NCBI GenBank assembly: GCA_041662665.1
Contig: JBAZSC010000004.1
Span: 76,464 to 136,403, forward strand
Length of the DNA stretch: 59,940 bases
Direction of reading: 5' to 3'
Origin: Patescibacteria group bacterium
Lineage (GTDB): Bacteria; Patescibacteriota; JABMPQ01; JAQVVF01
The notes under the pieces were generated by a model. That model was not told where the DNA came from. It saw only the letters and a program-made list of their open reading frames with translations, and did no database searches. Below, piece by piece: positions 3,923 to 56,188 of the stretch. Each line of letters opens with the position of its first letter. Positions within the stretch are counted from its first letter, which is position 1. Both the position numbers and the translations under genes were made by a program.

Positions 3923-3963
3923 TTCTGCATTTTCTGCGTTAACTTCTGCGTTTTTTCTGCGAT
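3923..3963. repeat. intergenic word repeat, TTCTGCG(T/A)T family (4 copies)
   Basis: ttctgcattttctgcgttaacttctgcgttttttctgcgatt; the same word recurs at ~25258, ~28900, ~32250. Confidence 0.8.
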
Positions 3964-3994
3964 TAAATTATTTAACAATTTAACAATAGAACAA

Positions 3995-7500: not shown

Positions 7501-7566
7501 AAGATTAAAACACAAATCCCAAATCCCAAATTCCAAACAAATTACAAATCACAAAATACAAAAAAA

Positions 7567-20284: not shown

Positions 20285-20347
20285 GCATTCGTATCCGCGT
20301 TAGCATCCATATCGTATCCGCGTCGTTTCCGCAACGTTCCGCGATAA
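20285..20347. repeat. intergenic word repeat, (T)ATCCGCGT family
   Basis: cgtatccgcgttagcatccatatcgtatccgcgtcgtttccgcaacgttccgcg; family recurs at ~21400, ~24668, ~33548. Confidence 0.75.
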
Positions 20348-20392
20348 TATTTATTTATTTCAATAGAATTGCAATCTTATCAAATCGTTTTT

Positions 20393-21361: not shown

Positions 21362-21489
21362 TTTTTATTCTATATTATTACAACTAAATTTTTAGAGAGT
21401 ATCCGCGTTATATCCGTATTTTCCGCGTAAATTTATTATGAGTATTAAATTATTTTTCAAATATTATAAAAAATCAACGAAATTATTTA

Positions 21490-24547: not shown

Positions 24548-24757
24548 AACTTTTTTTAATTTTTCATTTTCTCCAAAAATCAACATACCCGCCACTATCT
24601 TGTCAAGTTTTATAATAGAATTATAACAAAATAAATCAAAAAAACAAAGTAAATGTCAAGGTTTTTTAATTATCCGTTTGCCATCCGTTGAATCCGCGTA
24701 AAAGACGATAAAAACAAAAAACTTTTAAAGTTTTAAATAATTAGTTTGTACCGTTAA

Positions 24758-25228: not shown

Positions 25229-25358
25229 TATTTAATGTTATTTATACACTTTTTAACTTTTTTCTGCGATTTCTGCGTCAGATTCTGCATATTTTTGCGT
25301 TAAAGTCATATAAATAACTATTCATATGACTTTACAGCACACCAAAATTCATAAAATT

Positions 25359-26087: not shown

Positions 26088-26100
26088 ATAACCAGTTAAA

Positions 26101-26150
26101 AATCTAAAGTCAAAAATCAAAAATATTTAAGACTTTAGATTTTAGACTTT
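26101..26150. repeat. intergenic word repeat (AGACTTTAGATTT family)
   Basis: aatctaaagtcaaaaatcaaaaatatttaagactttagattttagacttt; the 18-mer gactttagattttagact is identical to 43531-43548 inside trmD. Confidence 0.8.
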
Positions 26151-26151
26151 T

Positions 26152-28866: not shown

Positions 28867-29260
28867 AAAAAATAATGTTTATTTTTTATTTTTAAAAAAA
28901 ATCTGCATTTTTCTGCGTTAGCTTCTGCGTGTTTCTGCGTTAAAAAGCTATTTAACAGTTAGCTTATTAGAAAAAGATAGAAACAATCTAATTTAATTCT
29001 ATCTTGTTAATAAAGTATAGCTTCAATTAAACAAAACATTAAGGATTAATATGTTTACAACTTGTTGAGAACCTGTGGATAACTTAAGTTTATGCTATAT
29101 CTTAAATATGCTGTTGTCAAGAATTATGCTATAATAAAAACAAGGAAACAGAAAATAGAAAACAGTTTGTTTCGCAAGTTTCTGTTTTCTGTTTACTGTT
29201 TTCTTTTTTATGGACAAGAACTAAAAAATTTGCTATTCTCTATAAAATAATTTTAATTTT
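28867..29260. other. candidate oriC / dnaA upstream region
   Basis: Perfect DnaA box TGTGGATAA at 29074-29082, AT-rich tracts, TTCTGCG word repeats (28900-28942), extended -10 TGCTATAAT at 29127-29135. Confidence 0.45.
29144..29203. repeat. palindromic word repeat (AACAGAAAA family)
   Basis: ggaaacagaaaatagaaaacag ... ctgttttctgtttactgttttc; same family at 52402-52466. Confidence 0.75.
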
Positions 29261-32248: not shown

Positions 32249-32364
32249 TTTACGCAATTTCTGCGTTAGCTTCTGCGTTTTTTCGCGTTAGATCTTTCTA
32301 AAAAACGCACATCTAATTATTTTTGCATAACAATTTAAGACGAAAAACATTAAAATTAATCCAA

Positions 32365-33510: not shown

Positions 33511-33668
33511 CTTTCTTCCTCCTCTTCTTGGGGTTGGCTTTAGAATCATTTTTCCGCATTAAAATCCGCTCAATCCGCGCAATTTGTTCATTTTTTTATA
33601 ACATATTTTTGTGCAAGAATGATTTTGAAACACTCAAAATGAATTTTTAATTTTAAAGAGCATCTTTG

Positions 33669-34107: not shown

Positions 34108-34284
34108 TAATTTGACAAATTAAGCAAAATTTTACAAATTTTAATATTAAACAAGAAGAATGTGAATATCTTAATATCCGAATATCGTAATATCTTCAAA
34201 AATCAAAGCATTAGGGATCGCATTAGAGAAGTAGTTATTCGAGATAGCATTAGAGAAGAGTAATTAACAAAGCAAAAATCAAAT

Positions 34285-35135: not shown

Positions 35136-35250
35136 AAATTCCAAATAACAAATACCAAATTCCAAACAAATTACAAACTCCAAGCTACAAAAAACAAAAG
35201 TTTTGTAATTTGTATTTTGGGATTTGTTTGTGATTTGGTATTTGGAATTT
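35136..35250. repeat. long imperfect palindrome of CCAAAT/ACAAAT words
   Basis: aaattccaaataacaaataccaaattccaaacaaattacaaa ... ttttgtaatttgtattttgggatttgtttgtgatttggtatttggaattt. Confidence 0.8.
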
Positions 35251-35662: not shown

Positions 35663-35732
35663 TAGTAATTAGTTAACTAGTAATTAGTAATTAGTGTCGG
35701 CACTAGTTACTAATTTCTAGTTACTAGTTACC
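35663..35732. repeat. palindromic word repeat (TAGTAAC/TAGTTAC family)
   Basis: tagtaattagttaactagtaattagtaattagtg tcgg cactagttactaatttctagttactagttacc; family recurs at ~43771, ~44385, ~55489, ~56690, ~57600. Confidence 0.8.
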
Positions 35733-35740
35733 GATTCACG

Positions 35741-37553: not shown

Positions 37554-37626
37554 TGGACCTGAGCGGACTCGAACCGCTCACCTCCTGCTTGCAAAGCAGG
37601 CGCTCTACCAGATGAGCTACAGGCCC
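37554..37626 (-). tRNA. tRNA-Ala (anticodon UGC)
   Basis: Cloverleaf folds by hand: GGGCCTG/CAGGTCC acceptor with G3:U70, anticodon loop TTTGCAA, T-loop TTCGAGT; no encoded CCA. Confidence 0.9.
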
Positions 37627-38633: not shown

Positions 38634-38710
38634 TGGTGGGCGCACTTAGATTCGAACTAAGGACCTCGTCATTATCAGTGACGCGCTCTAACCAACTGAG
38701 CTATGCGCCC
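38634..38710 (-). tRNA. tRNA-Ile (anticodon GAU), CCA encoded
   Basis: GGGCGCA/TGCGCCC acceptor, D-arm GCTC/GAGC, anticodon loop CTGATAA, T-arm CTTAG-TTCGAAT-CTAAG, ACCA end. Confidence 0.9.
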
Positions 38711-39657: not shown

Positions 39658-39735
39658 GAGCTTCGGAACGTCGGAGCTTCGGAACGTCAGAACGTCAGAA
39701 CGTCCGACGATCCGATTTCCGACACTCCGAAGCTC
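39658..39735. repeat. palindromic word repeat (CTTCGGAACGTC family), GC-rich
   Basis: gagcttcggaacgtcggagcttcggaacgtcagaacgtcagaacgtccgacgatccgatttccgacactccgaagctc. Confidence 0.75.
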
Positions 39736-39925: not shown

Positions 39926-41541
<1,616 letters not shown>

Positions 41542-41765
41542 TAAATATCTATAATTAATAAATTAATCATAGATCAACTAAAAAATTTAAAGTAAGCTTG
41601 TTAGCTCAAAATAAACGGAATTAACGTAAAACTCTTATCACTATTTAATTATCAAAGTGCGAGAATTATAGACTGATTCTTTTTAATTTTTGAAGTTAAA
41701 AAATATCAAGCTACAATTTTCATAGCTATTTTTACAGATTTACTTGTAAGTAATTTAGTACTTAA

Positions 41766-42041: not shown

Positions 42042-42479
42042 GTGGAAAAAGACAGGATAAAGAAAATACTACCAAGAGTTACTATCATTACAGGAGTTGT
42101 ATCTATGTTGTTACTCTTGTTTGCAGCTTCTCGTCAATCAACTGCAGAATTAGTTCATCAAAAAGTTGGAAAGGTAATTACTACTATCTTTGGTCCACAA
42201 AAGGAGCCTGAAAAATTTTTTTATTCTGAATTTGAAAAAGGCAAGCTATACTTTGACGTAAAGCCGTATGTCATAGATAATGGTCAAGGCCTAGCATTCA
42301 TCTATATCGGTCAATTTCGCAAAAATGACTTTGGATTTCGTCCTGATATCTATCATCGCGAAAGGATTGAATCTTTCTTTGCCTATTGGAAAAAGCAGTA
42401 TCCAGAACATTCTTCAAAGATCAAAAGTTTTTCTCCTACTGCTCAAAATAATTTGTATTTAGTACTTTACGGTCCATGA
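42042..42479 (+). CDS. membrane-anchored orphan protein (paralog A)
   Basis: AAGGAGGGAAGG SD, GTG start, one N-terminal TM, conserved DNGQGLAFIYIG and YWKKQYPEH blocks shared with 42605..43000. Confidence 0.6.
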   Translation: MEKDRIKKILPRVTIITGVVSMLLLLFAASRQSTAELVHQKVGKVITTIFGPQKEPEKFFYSEFEKGKLYFDVKPYVIDNGQGLAFIYIGQFRKNDFGFRPDIYHRERIESFFAYWKKQYPEHSSKIKSFSPTAQNNLYLVLYGP

Positions 42480-42541: not shown

Positions 42542-42604
42542 AATTAGTCAGAAAAAAGTCCGTACTCTTAAATGTTTCGCACGCCGCAGAGGGAGGAGGA
42601 GATA

Positions 42605-43000
42605 ATGACACAAGCAAAAAAACCAAAAATTGATGCGCGTATGATTATTTTAAGCAGTATTGTTAGTTCAGCTATTTTGCTTGTAATTGGATACGGAGTA
42701 TTAAAACTTGGTGTTTTTATCACGCACTGGATGGTGACAGAGAAACCAGTTCAAGGATCAACTGAAACTTCCAAAACTGATTTAAGTAACTCTATCGTTA
42801 TCGATCATGGTCAGGGAGTAGCATTCATCTATCTTGGAAACTTGCCAGGTAGCAAAGAAATTCCTTTTTACGCAGAAAAATTTGAAGAGCCATTTGCTCA
42901 GTGGAAAAAAGAATATCCAACTCATGCACAGAAAATCACTGGAATAACTACTTTAAGAAACAATAACTATTTGTACATTATTCTTTACTCAACCGACTAA
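42605..43000 (+). CDS. membrane-anchored orphan protein (paralog B)
   Basis: GGGAGGAGGAG SD before ATG 42605; DHGQGVAFIYLG and QWKKEYPTH blocks. Confidence 0.6.
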   Translation: MTQAKKPKIDARMIILSSIVSSAILLVIGYGVLKLGVFITHWMVTEKPVQGSTETSKTDLSNSIVIDHGQGVAFIYLGNLPGSKEIPFYAEKFEEPFAQWKKEYPTHAQKITGITTLRNNNYLYIILYSTD

Positions 43001-43019
43001 CAGCATCATAGCTGTTTTT

Positions 43020-43763
43020 TTATTTTTTAATTTTAACGTGTTTTTTTTTCCATTCTTCAATTTTTTCATGATCGCCAGACAATAAAACTTTAGGTACAGA
43101 AAGAGTCGTAGTTTTTAAAGTTTGTAATTTGGAATTTGTAATTTGTTTGGGATTTGGGATTTGGAATTTTTCAGGTCTAGTATATTGTGGATACTCCACA
43201 TAATCTTTATCAACAGAAAAAGTATCATCAAGAGCAGAATGTTCATGTCCCAAAACACCAGGAATCAATCTTGTCACAGCTTCAACCAAAACCATAGCAG
43301 GCAATTCTCCACCAGATAAAACATAATTACCTATTGAAATTTTTTCATCAACAAATTTATCTATGCGAGCATCAAAACCTTCATATCTTCCGCATAACAA
43401 AATAATATTATCAAGTTTAGACAATCTCATCGCCATTTTCTGATCAAGTGTCTTGCCAGCCGGAGTTAACATGATGATTTTAGATTTCGAGTTGTTATTT
43501 TTGACTTTAGATTTAGGAGAAATATTTTTGACTTTAGATTTTAGACTAGTAATCGCTCGATAAAAAGGCTCAACTTGCAAAATCATGCCCTGCCCGCCTC
43601 CGTATGGTTTATCATCAACTTTGCTGTGTTTATCTAAAGTATAATCACGTAAATTATGAATATTAATTTTAATCAAATTTTTCTTTTGTGCGCGCGACAA
43701 AATAGATTCAGAGAAATATGAATCAAATATCTTTGGAAAAATTGTTATTATATCGAATTGCAT
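43020..43763 (-). CDS. trmD: tRNA (guanine37-N1)-methyltransferase TrmD, carrying two in-frame word-repeat insertions
   Basis: GGGQGMIL, CGRYEGFDAR, SIGNYVLSGGELPA motifs; low-complexity inserts SLKSKVKNISPKSKVKNNNSKSK and QIPNPKQITNSKLQTLKTTT. Confidence 0.9.
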   Translation of the reverse strand: MQFDIITIFPKIFDSYFSESILSRAQKKNLIKINIHNLRDYTLDKHSKVDDKPYGGGQGMILQVEPFYRAITSLKSKVKNISPKSKVKNNNSKSKIIMLTPAGKTLDQKMAMRLSKLDNIILLCGRYEGFDARIDKFVDEKISIGNYVLSGGELPAMVLVEAVTRLIPGVLGHEHSALDDTFSVDKDYVEYPQYTRPEKFQIPNPKQITNSKLQTLKTTTLSVPKVLLSGDHEKIEEWKKKHVKIKK

Positions 43764-43770
43764 AGTTGTG

Positions 43771-43835
43771 TTAACTAGTAATTAGTAACTAGTAACTAGT
43801 CGTCGTTCTAGTTACTAATTACTGATTACTAGTTT
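43771..43835. repeat. palindromic word repeat (TAGTAAC family)
   Basis: ttaactagtaattagtaactagtaactagt cgtcgt tctagttactaattactgattactag. Confidence 0.75.
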
Positions 43836-43907
43836 CTCCATTCTTCACGTAAAAGCCACCAATTAATGGTGGCCTTTATTTATTTTGAATCTTATTAAGA
43901 TTTAAGA

Positions 43908-44422: not shown

Positions 44423-44824
44423 TTATTTCTTTTCTTCAGGTTTTGCAGGAGTTTCATTATTCTTAATTCCTGATTCTTTATTCTCATTTTTCTTTTCCTC
44501 TGCCTTTGGAGCTTCGGTTGCTGGTTTTACAGGTTCTGCACCTTTTTTTGTAGTCTGTGCTCTGTCTTTTCTATTCAATACTTCCAACTTGCCAGTAACT
44601 TTTTGTTTCTTTAACATTTCTTTAACAGTCTGGCTTACTTTTGCGCCACTCTTTAGCCAGTATTCAACTCTTTCCTTTTTTAATTCTACTTTGTCGCTTC
44701 TTGGATCAAAAGATCCTAAGATTTCGATGAATTTTCCTCTAACAGGAAAATTATGGTCAGTCAAAACCAGCCTGTATTTAGGTTGGTTCTTCTTGCCGAT
44801 TCTTGTAAGACGTATAGTTAACAT
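44423..44824 (-). CDS. rpsP: 30S ribosomal protein S16 with Lys/Glu-rich C-terminal extension
   Basis: MLTIRLTRIGKKNQPKYRLVL N-terminus. Confidence 0.9.
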   Translation of the reverse strand: MLTIRLTRIGKKNQPKYRLVLTDHNFPVRGKFIEILGSFDPRSDKVELKKERVEYWLKSGAKVSQTVKEMLKKQKVTGKLEVLNRKDRAQTTKKGAEPVKPATEAPKAEEKKNENKESGIKNNETPAKPEEKK

Positions 44825-48079: not shown

Positions 48080-48186
48080 TATAAATTACAAATTCCAAAT
48101 CCCAAACAAAACACAAATTACAAATTACAACAATATTTTGTGTATTGTGATTTGTAATTTGTTTGGAATTTGGTATTTGGGATTTA
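48080..48186. repeat. long imperfect palindrome of CCAAAT/ACAAAT words in the smc/rlmE divergent spacer
   Basis: ataaattacaaattccaaatcccaaacaaaacacaaattacaaattacaa ... gtgatttgtaatttgtttggaatttggtatttgggattt. Confidence 0.8.
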
Positions 48187-48242
48187 TTATTTTAGTCTAT
48201 CAAATTTTTTTATTCTTGACAAATTGAGTATTCTGATTAATA

Positions 48243-51572: not shown

Positions 51573-51579
51573 AAAAAAA

Positions 51580-51692
51580 TTTTCAATTTACAATTCTCAA
51601 TTTTCAATAAATTATCAATGAACAATTTTCAATTAGTTACGACTTTGAAAACTGAAAATTGATAATTTATTGAAAATTGGAAACTGGTCATT
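51580..51692. repeat. long palindromic word repeat (TTGAAAAT/ATTTTCAA family)
   Basis: TTTTCAATAAATTATCAAT pairs perfectly with ATTGATAATTTATTGAAAA. Confidence 0.8.
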
Positions 51693-51698
51693 GAAAAT

Positions 51699-52394
51699 TT
51701 ATTTCTTCCACTCTTCCCTCTCAATCGCATTCTTCGCAGCATTTACTTGTGCTTCTTGTTTTGAATCTCCTTCACCTTCACCAAGTAATTTTTTTTCTAA
51801 ATATACGCCAATTTTAAATTTTCTTGCATGATCTGGTCCCCATTCTTTCAAAACTTGATATGTTGGAGTAACCTTTAAAGCATCTTGGATCTCTTCTTGT
51901 AATCTTGATTTTGGATCAATATATAATTTTTCGTCTAAAATCTTTTTTAATTCAGCAATAATATGTTTTTCAATGAAATCTTTTGCTACATCCCAGCCTT
52001 GATCTAAATAAATTGCGCCAATTACAGCTTCAAATGCATTAGCCAAAATAACATCTCTAGCTTTGCCAATATCTTTTGCTTCTCCTCTAGATAAGTATAA
52101 AAAATCATCATAACCTAATTCTTTCGCGTGTTTTGAAATCATGTTTGTATTAACAAGCGCAGATCTCCAGTTTGTTAAATCTCCTTCTGGATTTGTAAAA
52201 TTATTATACAAATGCTGAGTCACAACCAATTCAAGAACTGCATCTCCCAAAAATTCTAATCTTTCATTATTATCAAGTGGAAAGCTTGTATTTTCATTTA
52301 AATAAGAACGATGAACTAATGCTTGGTTAAGCAGTTTAATATTATTGAACTTTATTCCGATATTTTTCTCTAGTTGTGTAAAATCTTTGTCCAT
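51699..52394 (-). CDS. rnc: ribonuclease III
   Basis: NERLEFLGDAVLE signature, C-terminal dsRBD. Confidence 0.9.
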   Translation of the reverse strand: MDKDFTQLEKNIGIKFNNIKLLNQALVHRSYLNENTSFPLDNNERLEFLGDAVLELVVTQHLYNNFTNPEGDLTNWRSALVNTNMISKHAKELGYDDFLYLSRGEAKDIGKARDVILANAFEAVIGAIYLDQGWDVAKDFIEKHIIAELKKILDEKLYIDPKSRLQEEIQDALKVTPTYQVLKEWGPDHARKFKIGVYLEKKLLGEGEGDSKQEAQVNAAKNAIEREEWKK

Positions 52395-52401
52395 ACGTTT
52401 T

Positions 52402-52500
52402 AGAAAACAGAAAATAGAAAATAGAAAAGAGTAGATAATTAACTGTTTTCTGTTTCCTGTTTTCTCTTTATAACTTTATAAACTTTAAAAACTTTATAAC
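52402..52500. repeat. palindromic AACAGAAAA words followed by CTTTATAA words
   Basis: agaaaacagaaaatagaaaatagaaaagag ... ctgttttctgtttcctgttttctc, then tttataactttataaactttaaaaactttataac (also seen at 7590-7610). Confidence 0.75.
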
Positions 52501-52938: not shown

Positions 52939-52959
52939 TTTTTTTGTTTTAAATAAAAT

Positions 52960-53058
52960 ATAATACGAATGACGATACGAATAATGCGAATGATACGAAT
53001 TACGAATAATTAATTCAGCGTATATCAGCGTTAGAAATCAGCGTTTAATCAGCGCTTG
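52960..53058. repeat. word repeats ACGAAT then CAGCGTT
   Basis: atacgaatgacgatacgaataatgcgaatgatacgaattacgaat ... cagcgtatatcagcgttagaaatcagcgtttaatcagcgc. Confidence 0.75.
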
Positions 53059-53060
53059 TA

Positions 53061-53297: not shown

Positions 53298-53433
53298 AGA
53301 CGTGAATTATAAATAACTAAATTAAAATTTCTTACTAATATCATTTTAGCTCATTTTTTCATTCTTGACAAGGGATTTTGATTTACGGTGTTTAATTTTA
53401 CAAAATTCCGCAAGATTATGCACAAGCAATTAT

Positions 53434-53465
53434 TTGACTTCTAGCAAGGGGGGGGGGGGTAGAAT
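53434..53465 (+). promoter_or_regulatory. promoter-like TTGACT / TAGAAT pair separated by a 20-nt spacer containing a G12 homopolymer
   Basis: TTGACT 53434-53439, G12 53448-53459, TAGAAT 53460-53465. Confidence 0.45.
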
Positions 53466-53495
53466 AAAGATAAATTAACAATTTAATACAAAAAT

Positions 53496-53909: not shown

Positions 53910-54000
53910 TTACATAAAAATCCCGCACAAACGGGATTTTTTAATATCATAATATCCGTAATATTCGTAATTTCCGAATTTCACAATTTCCGAATATCCG

Positions 54001-55484: not shown

Positions 55485-55547
55485 AAAATTAGTAATTAGT
55501 AATAAGTAACTAGTAACTAGGGCGACGTAGTCGATGCTAGTTACTAA

Positions 55548-56087
55548 TTACTTTTTACTAGTTATCTTATTGATTATTTTATTAATTTGCTTAACTAATT
55601 CTTTTCTATTGCCGCTATTATCAACCACAATTTTTTGTTCACGTATTGGTTCAAATCTAGATTTGATAATATGATATGTTTTCATTGTTACTTCGCTTTC
55701 TTTTGCTTTAAATCTCGCTTCAATTCTTTTCTCTGTAATCTCTTCATCGCATTTCACATAAATAATATACAATTTTGTCTTAAACAATTCAGCCAGTTTT
55801 TTTGCTTGATCAACATATGCTTTCTTGAAAAATGTCGCATTCAAAATAACACTTTGGCCATTCATCAATCTTTTTGCACCATTAGAAAACAAAGTATTAT
55901 AAACTGAGCTCTTAACTTCGCGAGCCCAAAAATTTTTATTCTTCAATTCATCAATAATTTTCTTAGTTGGCTTTAATTGATCTGATTCTATCATCTGCTC
56001 CTTTAATTTCGCTCTCAACATTTCGCCAACAGTACTTTTGCCAACGCCAGGAAGGCCACAAATCAAAATCAACATAACAATATTCAA
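55548..56087 (-). CDS. P-loop kinase / AAA-type ATP-binding protein
   Basis: ICGLPGVGKST Walker A near the N-terminus; TTG start at 56087 or ATG at 56075. Confidence 0.7.
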   Translation of the reverse strand: MNIVMLILICGLPGVGKSTVGEMLRAKLKEQMIESDQLKPTKKIIDELKNKNFWAREVKSSVYNTLFSNGAKRLMNGQSVILNATFFKKAYVDQAKKLAELFKTKLYIIYVKCDEEITEKRIEARFKAKESEVTMKTYHIIKSRFEPIREQKIVVDNSGNRKELVKQINKIINKITSKK

Positions 56088-56100
56088 TATTTAATATTCA

Positions 56101-56188
56101 ATATCCTAATATCTCAATATCCTAATATCTCAATATCCTAATATCTCAATATCCTAATATCTCAATATCCTAATATCTCAATATCTCG
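56101..56188. repeat. perfect tandem repeat, 16-nt unit ATATCCTAATATCTCA x5 plus a partial copy
   Basis: Units at 56101, 56117, 56133, 56149, 56165; degenerate copies at 56079-56100. Confidence 0.9.

Follow-up and report, generated by a model that had tools for sequence, protein, structure and literature searches.

How does an essential, conserved enzyme gene come to hold the repeat words of the spacers between genes? The question is raised by trmD, which encodes the tRNA (m1G37) methyltransferase, in a 59,940-nucleotide stretch of a Patescibacteria genome (assembly GCA_041662665.1, contig JBAZSC010000004.1, positions 76,464 to 136,403), hereafter called the window. The original prediction, made from the sequence alone, held that two in-frame segments of this gene are built of words that also fill intergenic spacers, and it offered two origins: insertion of repeat modules that are tolerated in surface loops, or one slippage process acting everywhere. 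Both segments (inserts A and B in Table 1) proved to be tandem arrays of heptanucleotides whose words recur in the arms of intergenic hairpins, and on the matter of origin the evidence favored a mix of copying and slippage over either one alone. We think it fairly likely that the trmD segments are one-armed, in-frame pieces of the heptanucleotide word arrays of this lineage, which slippage has reshaped and selection has filtered.

The product matched the PF01746 profile over residues 23 to 242 (E = 3e-51; 174 bits, with a cut-off of 27.3) and 27 distinct sequences of solved TrmD structures (E down to 6e-57), and its AlphaFold2 model, with a mean predicted local distance difference test score (pLDDT) of 73.5, matched TrmD among the known structures with a probability of 1.0. 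In an alignment with 32 relatives and the solved structures, the LTPAG, CGRYEGFD, and SIGNYVLSGGE motifs were invariant, while R165 and the Asp of DDTFS aligned with the RFIPGVLG and EDSF motifs of Escherichia coli and Haemophilus influenzae. The catalytic Arg and Asp of TrmD are R154 and D169 in E. coli. The two extra peptides were found where they had been predicted, in frame at amino acids (aa) 73 to 95 and 201 to 220. Opposite them the solved structures had gaps of 12 to 14 aa (residues 76 to 89) and 18 aa (residues 202 to 219), and none of the 27 solved sequences carried either insert. Insert A precedes the strand leading to the first S-adenosylmethionine-binding loop, and insert B lies in the C-terminal domain between the YTRP and VPxVLLSG motifs. 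Mapped onto the predicted structure, both are low-confidence loops, with a pLDDT of <50 at aa 82 to 90 and of 51 to 62 over aa 190 to 225, compared with 80 to 92 in the SPOUT core. The protein stops 6 aa past the last position aligned to PDB chains, which run ca. 30 aa further, and the tail beyond VLLSG measured 19 to 31 aa in 108 of 108 relatives, so that the short C-terminal domain is a clade-wide trait and not the truncation of a single gene. Both here (window positions 43020 to 43100) and in all 108 relatives, the protein seems to lack the final helices of the tRNA-binding C-terminal domain. At the other end of the gene, a promoter-like match (43774 to 43747) overlaps conserved N-terminal codons and was judged spurious.

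Insert A carries an 18-mer, GACTTTAGATTTTAGACT, that is identical to positions 26131 to 26148 of the dnaN-yebC spacer, for which dinucleotide shuffles gave a chance expectation of 0.01 matches. The identity had been correctly predicted, but the trmD copy lies at 43530 to 43547 and not at 43531 to 43548. The similarity widens to 26 of 28 bases (43520-47 versus 26121-48) and extends to both arms of the 26094-26151 hairpin, since the other arm (26094 to 26111) holds the 18-mer with 2 mismatches. Within insert A, AAATCTAAAGTCAAAAAT forms a direct repeat with a 27-base spacing (43497 to 43514 and 43524 to 43541), and the encoded peptide has Lys at 8 of 23 residues. In insert B, a CCAAATC/ACAAATT heptanucleotide array spans 43121 to 43169, flanked by the YTRPE and VPKVLLSG motifs, and the conserved Glu-Lys-Phe codons at its start, GAAAAATTC, resemble the array word. 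Here a 17-mer, ATTTGTAATTTGTTTGG (43134 to 43150), is repeated exactly in the smc-rlmE spacer (48150 to 48166), as had been noted, and at a third site on the minus strand (7533 to 7549), with near copies (1 to 2 mismatches) at 35162 and 48102; its chance expectation was 0.09 matches. Insert B as a whole is a mosaic of exact 16- to 18-mers from three hairpins, including the 48081-48187 and 7513-7554 arrays. The gene names that the original prediction had given to both spacers agreed with ours. Neither insert is structured as RNA: the predicted fold of insert A reached -4.2 kcal/mol (z = -0.65), and the minimum free energy of insert B was 0 kcal/mol (z = +0.8).

The two inserts differ in abundance. 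In two groundwater metagenomes that contain this genome, the word depth of insert B was 280 to 660 and 160 to 410, with flanks at 14 and 4 to 5, respectively. We put the excess over the flanks at 20 to 45 times, whereas insert A had no such amplification. A 4.9-kb contig of X1, at the genome's own depth, carries a copy of 43121-43171 identical at 51 of 51 positions, which may come from a second locus of this genome. In a one-genome-per-species collection, which seems to lack the genome of the window, a 34-mer of insert B was found only in the orthologous trmD insert of one related metagenome-assembled genome (MAG).

Although trmD makes up 1.5% of the coding DNA of the window, it held 13 of the 20 coding sequence (CDS) positions that match intergenic DNA exactly over at least 17 bases and, at k = 18, 6 of 9; this excess and the low shuffle expectations both speak against chance matches. 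Neither chance matching nor conservation of the inserts in distant orthologues, the two refutations named with the original prediction, applies. Because the genome is AT-rich, sharing at k = 11 and k = 13 was noisy and was dropped in favor of these longer matches and a scan for 7-base periodicity. The scan of the window recovered ca. 10 intergenic arrays and one genuine CDS, trmD, whose lag-7 match of 0.77 was the highest of all CDS and exceeded the maximum (0.74) of 200 codon shuffles. The value was 0.59 to 0.77 for insert B, 0.52 for insert A, and 0.26 for the trmD core, while intergenic arrays gave 0.75 to 0.86 and loops about 0.5 to 0.93, without peaks at lags 3, 6, or 9. Second in rank among the CDS was rpsP (44423 to 44824, minus strand), with AAGAATN words in the segment that encodes its C-terminal tail (44453 to 44494) and a lag-7 match of 0.69, which corresponds to the 95% level of its codon shuffles; the length of the S16 protein was 122 to 169 aa among relatives.

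The intergenic arrays form long hairpins in which the A-rich arm is always 5' and the T-rich arm 3'; they fill the spacers and abut start codons. We counted 53 inverted pairs in the window; its spacers contain long, AT-rich inverted repeats with arms of 25 to 60 bases made of tandem runs of ca. 7 bases. Word hairpins folded as RNA with z values of -5.2 to -11.3 relative to shuffles, and they typically end 0 to 10 bases ahead of the next start codon (4 bases for smc and the 48081-48187 hairpin, which has exact 16- to 18-mers in common with insert B). They had no match among Rfam families. The window hairpins have words in common but no full-length consensus, and the syntenic spacers of relatives keep the hairpin with different words. 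We rejected a role as intrinsic (Rho-independent) terminators, which have a short GC-rich stem and then a U tract, because the word hairpins are rich in AT and lie against start codons; short GC-rich terminator-like hairpins are separate neighbors (43855 to 43873; 42999 to 43016), and the terminators and promoter-like sites of the spacers are conserved between relatives. Word hairpins occupy the place where ribosome-binding sites are expected, a situation that resembles that of the TAACTGA and STRR repeats described below. GGAGG-type sites precede other window genes, e.g., before 106 and 59119.

To place the inserts in time, the original prediction had proposed an alignment of orthologues. The closest TrmDs came from Patescibacteria MAGs (proteins of “Candidatus Buchananbacteria” are ca. 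60% identical), and among 108 close relatives both loops were hypervariable: loop A measured 6 to 31 aa and loop B 10 to 43 aa, which demonstrates that the two sites tolerate any length within these ranges. The shortest, KRKKKSK and ENFKGQKVPK, look like those of ordinary TrmDs, and the loops were always basic and hydrophilic. We compared the trmD DNA of nine relatives, with 3 to 20 kb available for each (individual relatives are labeled L001, L002, and so on). Their loops, too, are heptamer arrays: near-perfect (AAATCAA)x4 and (AAAGTCA)x4 in the loops of L105, (AAACTAA)x5 in loop A of L106, and AGAAATC/AGAAATA words in both loops of L107. Among the four closest genomes, with trmD core identities of 0.84 to 0.875, insert A of the window was not alignable to that of the others (identity 0.48 to 0.64), and at its site L003 has a GC-rich palindrome, GCCTGCCTGCCGGTAGGCAAGG, read as SLPAGRQG. 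The relationships of insert B conflict with the core tree, given an identity of 0.91 between the window and L005 but of 0.72 between L005 and L001, despite the closer cores of the latter pair; the window and L005 have an identical run of 48 bases in insert B, the longest in the gene, and length differences were 6 and 33 bases. In each species-level lineage, independent assemblies gave identical TrmD proteins. Compared in this way, the loops turn over faster than the surrounding codons diverge, but they are not visibly polymorphic in the available data, which are assembled contigs. Since the loops carry arrays throughout this TrmD clade, the window inserts are not two fresh insertions; they represent an old hot spot in its present state, with turnover continuing.

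The two loops of one protein also resemble each other. In L010, 38 identical bases, AAACCTTGCCTACCGGCAGGCAGGTCTCAAATCTCAAA, occur in both loops and are read in different frames as LPTGRQVSNLKS and LAYRQAGLKSQS; the two loops of L107 have 26 bases in common; and in a comparison of 59 proteins whose loops are expanded, loop A was closer to the loop B of its own protein than to those of others (permutation p < 1e-4). A second kind of sequence is embedded at these sites, namely, non-repetitive GC-rich palindromes of 21 to 47 bases in the loops of L003, L008, L009, and L010, those of L008 and L009 being strongly folding. A palindrome of ca. 21 bases (CCTGCCTGCCGGTAGGCAAGG and variants) was found both in spacers and in frame in protein-coding DNA of relatives, where it gives the peptides LPAGRQ, PTGRQ, and YRQAG and sits in phase within A-rich heptamer arrays; in L010 the 21-base GC core lies in such an array without duplication. 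We did not find it in the window.

A wider view came from an exact 22-mer, AAATYCCAAACAAATTACAAAT, common to insert B and three window spacers and present in 93 metagenome contigs from many samples. It spans an irregular 4-base partial unit (CCAAAC-AAAT), and regular slippage would therefore not recreate it independently. We analyzed the context of 82 instances from 80 loci, on contigs without taxonomic assignment. An inverted partner lay downstream in 49 of the 82 and upstream in 0 to 1, so the A-rich arm is always the 5' arm. Fourteen copies on 13 contigs with unrelated flanks had a conserved element of ca. 120 bases in common. Nine copies lay in frame within conserved domains of other proteins (SecA, LeuRS, a Val/Ile-type aminoacyl-tRNA synthetase, UvrC, MnmA, DnaX, an AMP-binding enzyme, the ATPase domain of a histidine kinase, and UppP), and all nine were in the A-rich sense orientation. 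Their inverted-partner scores were 5 to 10, indicating no partner arm, compared with at least 14 for hairpins. Judging by these copies and trmD, only the A-rich arm enters genes, never a whole hairpin. Among viral contigs the 22-mer was found in one short contig only, so that nothing points to a phage as its vector. When a translated array of 42 aa was searched against proteins, 21 candidates and nothing informative came back, the index being apparently unsuited to low-complexity peptides. Metatranscriptome runs contained no more than 11% of the region's words. The phenomenon appears to be widespread in Patescibacteria.

The 7-base periodicity inside an open reading frame (ORF), the 38 bases of L010 read in two frames, and the 22-mer in nine unrelated proteins demonstrate that the inserts are of DNA-level origin and do not stem from selection on the peptide. 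They probably formed in four steps. A-rich loop DNA (Lys and Asn codons), together with the word-like GAAAAATTC, would provide microhomology to the abundant A-rich arrays; stretches of array would then be copied into the loop sites by template switching or gene conversion; replication slippage in 7-base units would expand, contract, and homogenize them; and selection would pass only those events that are multiples of three bases, in the sense (A-rich) orientation, free of stops, and hydrophilic (K, N, Q, S, P, T, I). In a frame test, the A-rich strand of the CCAAATY family was open in 2 to 3 of 3 frames with 12 to 25% hydrophobic residues, the T-rich strand in 1 of 3 frames with 62 to 75%, and the TAGTAAC family, never seen within genes, in 0 of 3 frames on either strand. 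These figures mean that a simple selective filter accounts for both orientation and choice of family, and it would explain why genes hold the A-rich arm only and no hairpin, and why TAGTAAC-type families with their stops are absent from them. The inserted peptides are most likely near-neutral disordered loops, and the arrays are probably a constant source of mutational risk, since slipping by one unit puts an essential gene out of frame.

Several observations weigh against this reading. No copying event was caught directly, and trmD showed no target-site duplications or element boundaries; the junctions of array and core were without visible duplication, and we came upon no empty sites to compare with directly. 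The word family of insert A is of low copy number, with a depth of 14 to 22 in the source metagenome. Comparison of insert k-mers with the flanking DNA of their own and of other genomes gave no clear within-genome excess, in part because only 3 to 20 kb was available per relative. Where coding inserts include the GC palindrome, the A-rich words on its two sides are direct and not inverted repeats, so that such an insert is not simply copied from an intergenic hairpin. The near-perfect arrays of L105 and L106 could come from slippage alone. Finally, the neutrality of the peptides is an assumption, and insert A, being rich in Lys, could help an enzyme with a shortened C-terminal domain to bind tRNA.

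The arrays of L105 and L106 lead to the alternative that deserves the most attention, although we consider it unlikely: pure local slippage, in which arrays arise in place everywhere, seeded by A-rich native DNA, and their likeness is convergence on a small, mutation-biased vocabulary. The native codons GAAAAATTC do look like a seed word, insert A can be described as a local duplication of 27 bases, no element ends or target-site duplications are visible, and heptanucleotides are the most abundant class of long simple sequence repeats in prokaryotes, ascribed to polymerase slippage of ca. 7 bases in an established proposal (Mrazek et al. 2007, as reported in PMC4679880). In the same survey, as it is summarized there, units that are multiples of three are the likeliest in genes, unlike the 7-base unit that we find in essential genes. 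Slippage alone does not account for an irregular 22-mer that is exact in 93 contigs and nine unrelated proteins, for the conserved ca. 120-base element between unrelated flanks, for the non-repetitive GC palindromes in the loops of L003, L008, L009, and L010, for the 38 bases in both loops of L010, or for the complete replacement of insert A between genomes with cores 84% identical.

Beyond copying, slippage, and selection as set out above, one may imagine an active copying system in Patescibacteria (template-switch, reverse-transcriptase, or nuclease driven) that would spread the ca. 120-base heptamer hairpin element and the 21-base GC palindromes within and between genomes, with the A-rich half seeding Lys-codon-rich enzyme loops as new disordered segments; the intergenic hairpins, replacing Shine-Dalgarno regions, might then act as a platform, specific to the lineage, on which translation is initiated or mRNA processed. 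We offer this as speculation and consider it decidedly unlikely.

Still less credible is a discrete mobile element, similar to a miniature inverted-repeat transposable element or to REP, whose dedicated transposase or nuclease inserted whole hairpins that later lost the T-rich arm. It would fit the dispersal of near-identical ca. 120-base hairpin copies among unrelated flanks, the very high depth of insert B in the source metagenome, and the GC palindromes at many sites, and Rickettsia palindromic elements provide a precedent (PMC10969869). The nine in-ORF copies and trmD hold no trace of a second arm, neither terminal repeats distinct from the arms nor target-site duplications were seen, and the window hairpins share words without a full-length consensus. 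No transposase was identified, in a partial scan of the window genes and without a systematic screen for RAYT or IS200-type genes.

We find it just as improbable that the loops are protein-level adaptations, i.e., Lys-rich segments selected for tRNA binding to offset the short C-terminal domain, with the DNA likeness as a by-product of AT-rich codons. Such selection would agree with the 8 Lys among the 23 residues of insert A, the clade-wide short tail, and the invariably basic and hydrophilic loops. But a 7-base periodicity stronger than in any of 200 codon shuffles is beyond what codon usage can generate. One and the same DNA is translated in different frames and turns up in enzymes without a tRNA-binding role (SecA, UppP, and the histidine kinase), and close relatives do not conserve the sequence of the peptide. 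Last, an assembly artefact, in which a chimeric join at repeat k-mers would have put intergenic repeat DNA into trmD, might be suspected from the very high repeat depth and from Logan contigs that break within insert B, but it is effectively excluded because independent assemblies agree: the ORF is unbroken and in frame, L005 to L007 (three runs), MAG L011, and L001/L002 carry the orthologous insert B, and contigs of two studies (X1, 2022; X2, 2018) showed 0 differences from the window across the gene.

The trmD inserts thus combine two known kinds of sequence, heptanucleotide arrays and in-frame repeat intrusions. Their closest counterparts are the Rickettsia palindromic elements and the cyanobacterial STRR repeats. 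REP/BIME elements are imperfect palindromes of 20 to 40 bases with a conserved head and a RAYT gene in the genome; compared with them, the arms described here are of 25 to 60 bases and built of tandem words. Rickettsia palindromic elements are hairpin repeats that lie in frame in many genes as whole elements of ca. 150 bp (Ogata et al. 2000, as presented in PMC10969869). Going by that account, the resemblance lies in a dispersed hairpin-forming repeat that resides in frame at fold-tolerant sites of unrelated conserved, often essential, genes (here TrmD and nine other protein families), and in a family with a consensus and many copies (the 22-mer in 93 contigs, the ca. 120-base element in 14 copies). 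The same account gives the Rickettsia elements a family consensus, a whole palindrome, and a conserved peptide, unlike the A-rich arm alone, the degenerate 7-base word, and the peptide varying by frame and lineage that we describe; the hosts differ as well, being Patescibacteria here.

STRR sequences consist of 7-bp tandem units that lie in intergenic spacers and are able to form hairpins, with proposed roles in transcript stability or translational coupling (PMC2670836). Our repeats have in common with them the 7-base tandem unit and a mostly intergenic, hairpin-forming nature, but the host is not cyanobacterial (Patescibacteria, from the names of the closest TrmDs), and in-frame residence in internal loops of housekeeping enzymes departs from repeats described as intergenic. 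The window words (CCAAATY, TAGTAAC, CAATTTT, ACAGAAA, and others) presumably also differ from the canonical STRR units. TAACTGA heptamers of marine Beggiatoaceae, cyanobacteria, and Bacteroidetes stand just upstream of start codons without ribosome-binding sites; their patchy phylogenetic distribution suggests horizontal spread, and stop codons limit the orientation in which they occur in ORFs (MacGregor 2015, PMC4679880). They are direct repeats, in ORFs mostly at protein ends or in hypothetical proteins, whereas the words studied here make up hairpin arms and enter conserved domains of TrmD, SecA, aminoacyl-tRNA synthetases, UvrC, and DnaX. Tandem repeats of Borgs give rise to intrinsically disordered regions (Schoelmerich et al. 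2023, PMC9879509); like our arrays, they are A-enriched, fast evolving, and found both between genes and in ORFs as disordered segments, but they are perfect amino acid tandem repeats under strong selection and not degenerate 7-base arrays. With a 7-base unit, a peptide period of 7 aa is reached only after three units. We found no literature on heptamer-word hairpins or in-frame copies in Patescibacteria, in a search that did not cover all journals.

Repeat DNA of a non-triplet (7-base) unit can thus live, repeatedly, in essential conserved enzymes of bacteria with reduced genomes, where each in-gene array poses a lasting risk of frameshifts and at the same time readily supplies new disordered loops. 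This provides a DNA-level explanation for the odd low-complexity loops that Patescibacteria proteins carry, with KSQIPNPKQITN and LPAGRQ among their motifs, and that disturb alignments, phylogenies, structure prediction, and assembly, and it links protein loops to an abundant family of intergenic hairpins at expected ribosome-binding sites. The recurrent turnover at the two trmD loops makes them a tractable system for measuring rates of gain, replacement, and loss of arrays.

Table 1. Coordinates of trmD, its inserts, and repeat features of the window, with GC palindrome sites of relatives
Feature	Position	Strand	Description
trmD CDS, tRNA (m1G37) methyltransferase	43020..43763	minus	ORF of 247 aa; core motifs intact
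Insert A, aa 73-95	43479..43547	minus	SLKSKVKNISPKSKVKNNNSKSK; A-rich word array
Insert B, aa 201-220	43104..43163 (DNA array to 43169)	minus	QIPNPKQITNSKLQTLKTTT; aa 199-220 with preceding KF
Hairpin, dnaN->yebC spacer	26094..26151		AAATCTAAAGTC-type words in arms; insert A partner; inverted repeat I9/I19; -18.6 kcal/mol, z -5.2
Hairpin, smc<->rlmE spacer	48081..48187		50-base arms, CCAAATY/ACAAATT words; insert B partner; inverted repeat I2; -40.8 kcal/mol, z -7.9
A-rich CCAAATC array after tyrS, then short GC-rich terminator-like hairpin	7513..7554		third exact 17-mer copy
Hairpin, CCAAATY family	35143..35250		17-mer copy with 1 mismatch; inverted repeat I3
TAGTAAC-word hairpin	43773..43834		9 bases upstream of trmD start codon; inverted repeat I11; -32.3 kcal/mol, z -8.1
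Further TAGTAAC hairpins	55493-55564; 35665-35739		
CAATTTT hairpin	51573-51704		
ACAGAAA hairpins	29130-29210; 52402-52465		
CG-word repeats	3923-3994; 20290-20350; 21400-21440; 24680-24720; 25255-25300; 28900-28950; 32250-32300; 33550-33585; 34150-34200; 52939-53060; 53945-54000		
GC palindrome sites in relatives	L003 10227-10248; L001 8767-8788; L005 508-529		also L010 and L009 trmD loops and L063 UvrC

Among the features of Table 1, the array after tyrS translates in one frame to KSQIPNSKQITNH. The spacers of the window also hold a second class of repeats, made of CG-containing words with a period of ca. 8 to 10 bases (TTCTGCGTT, TCCGCGTTA, ATATCCGTA, TACGAAT, and TCAGCGTT), which lie upstream of genes and are for the most part repeated directly instead of forming hairpin arms. 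Other spacer repeats are a tandem array of ca. 5.5 copies of a 16-base unit, AATATCCTAATATCTC, at 56098 to 56185, and a run of 12 G at 53448 to 53459 in a divergent spacer (53298 to 53495), with a chance expectation of 0.01, which is possibly a slippage-prone tract.

Next to trmD, two adjoining paralogous small ORFs on the plus strand (42042 to 42479, 145 aa; 42572 to 43000, 142 aa) converge on the gene; a Pfam scan limited to the second of them gave no match, and the pair has the motif ID(N/H)GQG(L/V)AFIY(I/L)G in common. The 16S rRNA gene (39926 to 41545, minus strand) is followed by two tRNA genes (38637 to 38710 and 37554 to 37626, both minus) and then by protein-coding genes; the window contains no 23S gene, and the rRNA genes therefore appear to be unlinked. 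Directly downstream of the 16S gene, at 39661 to 39717, is an 8-base tandem repeat that begins with CTTCGGAACGTC.

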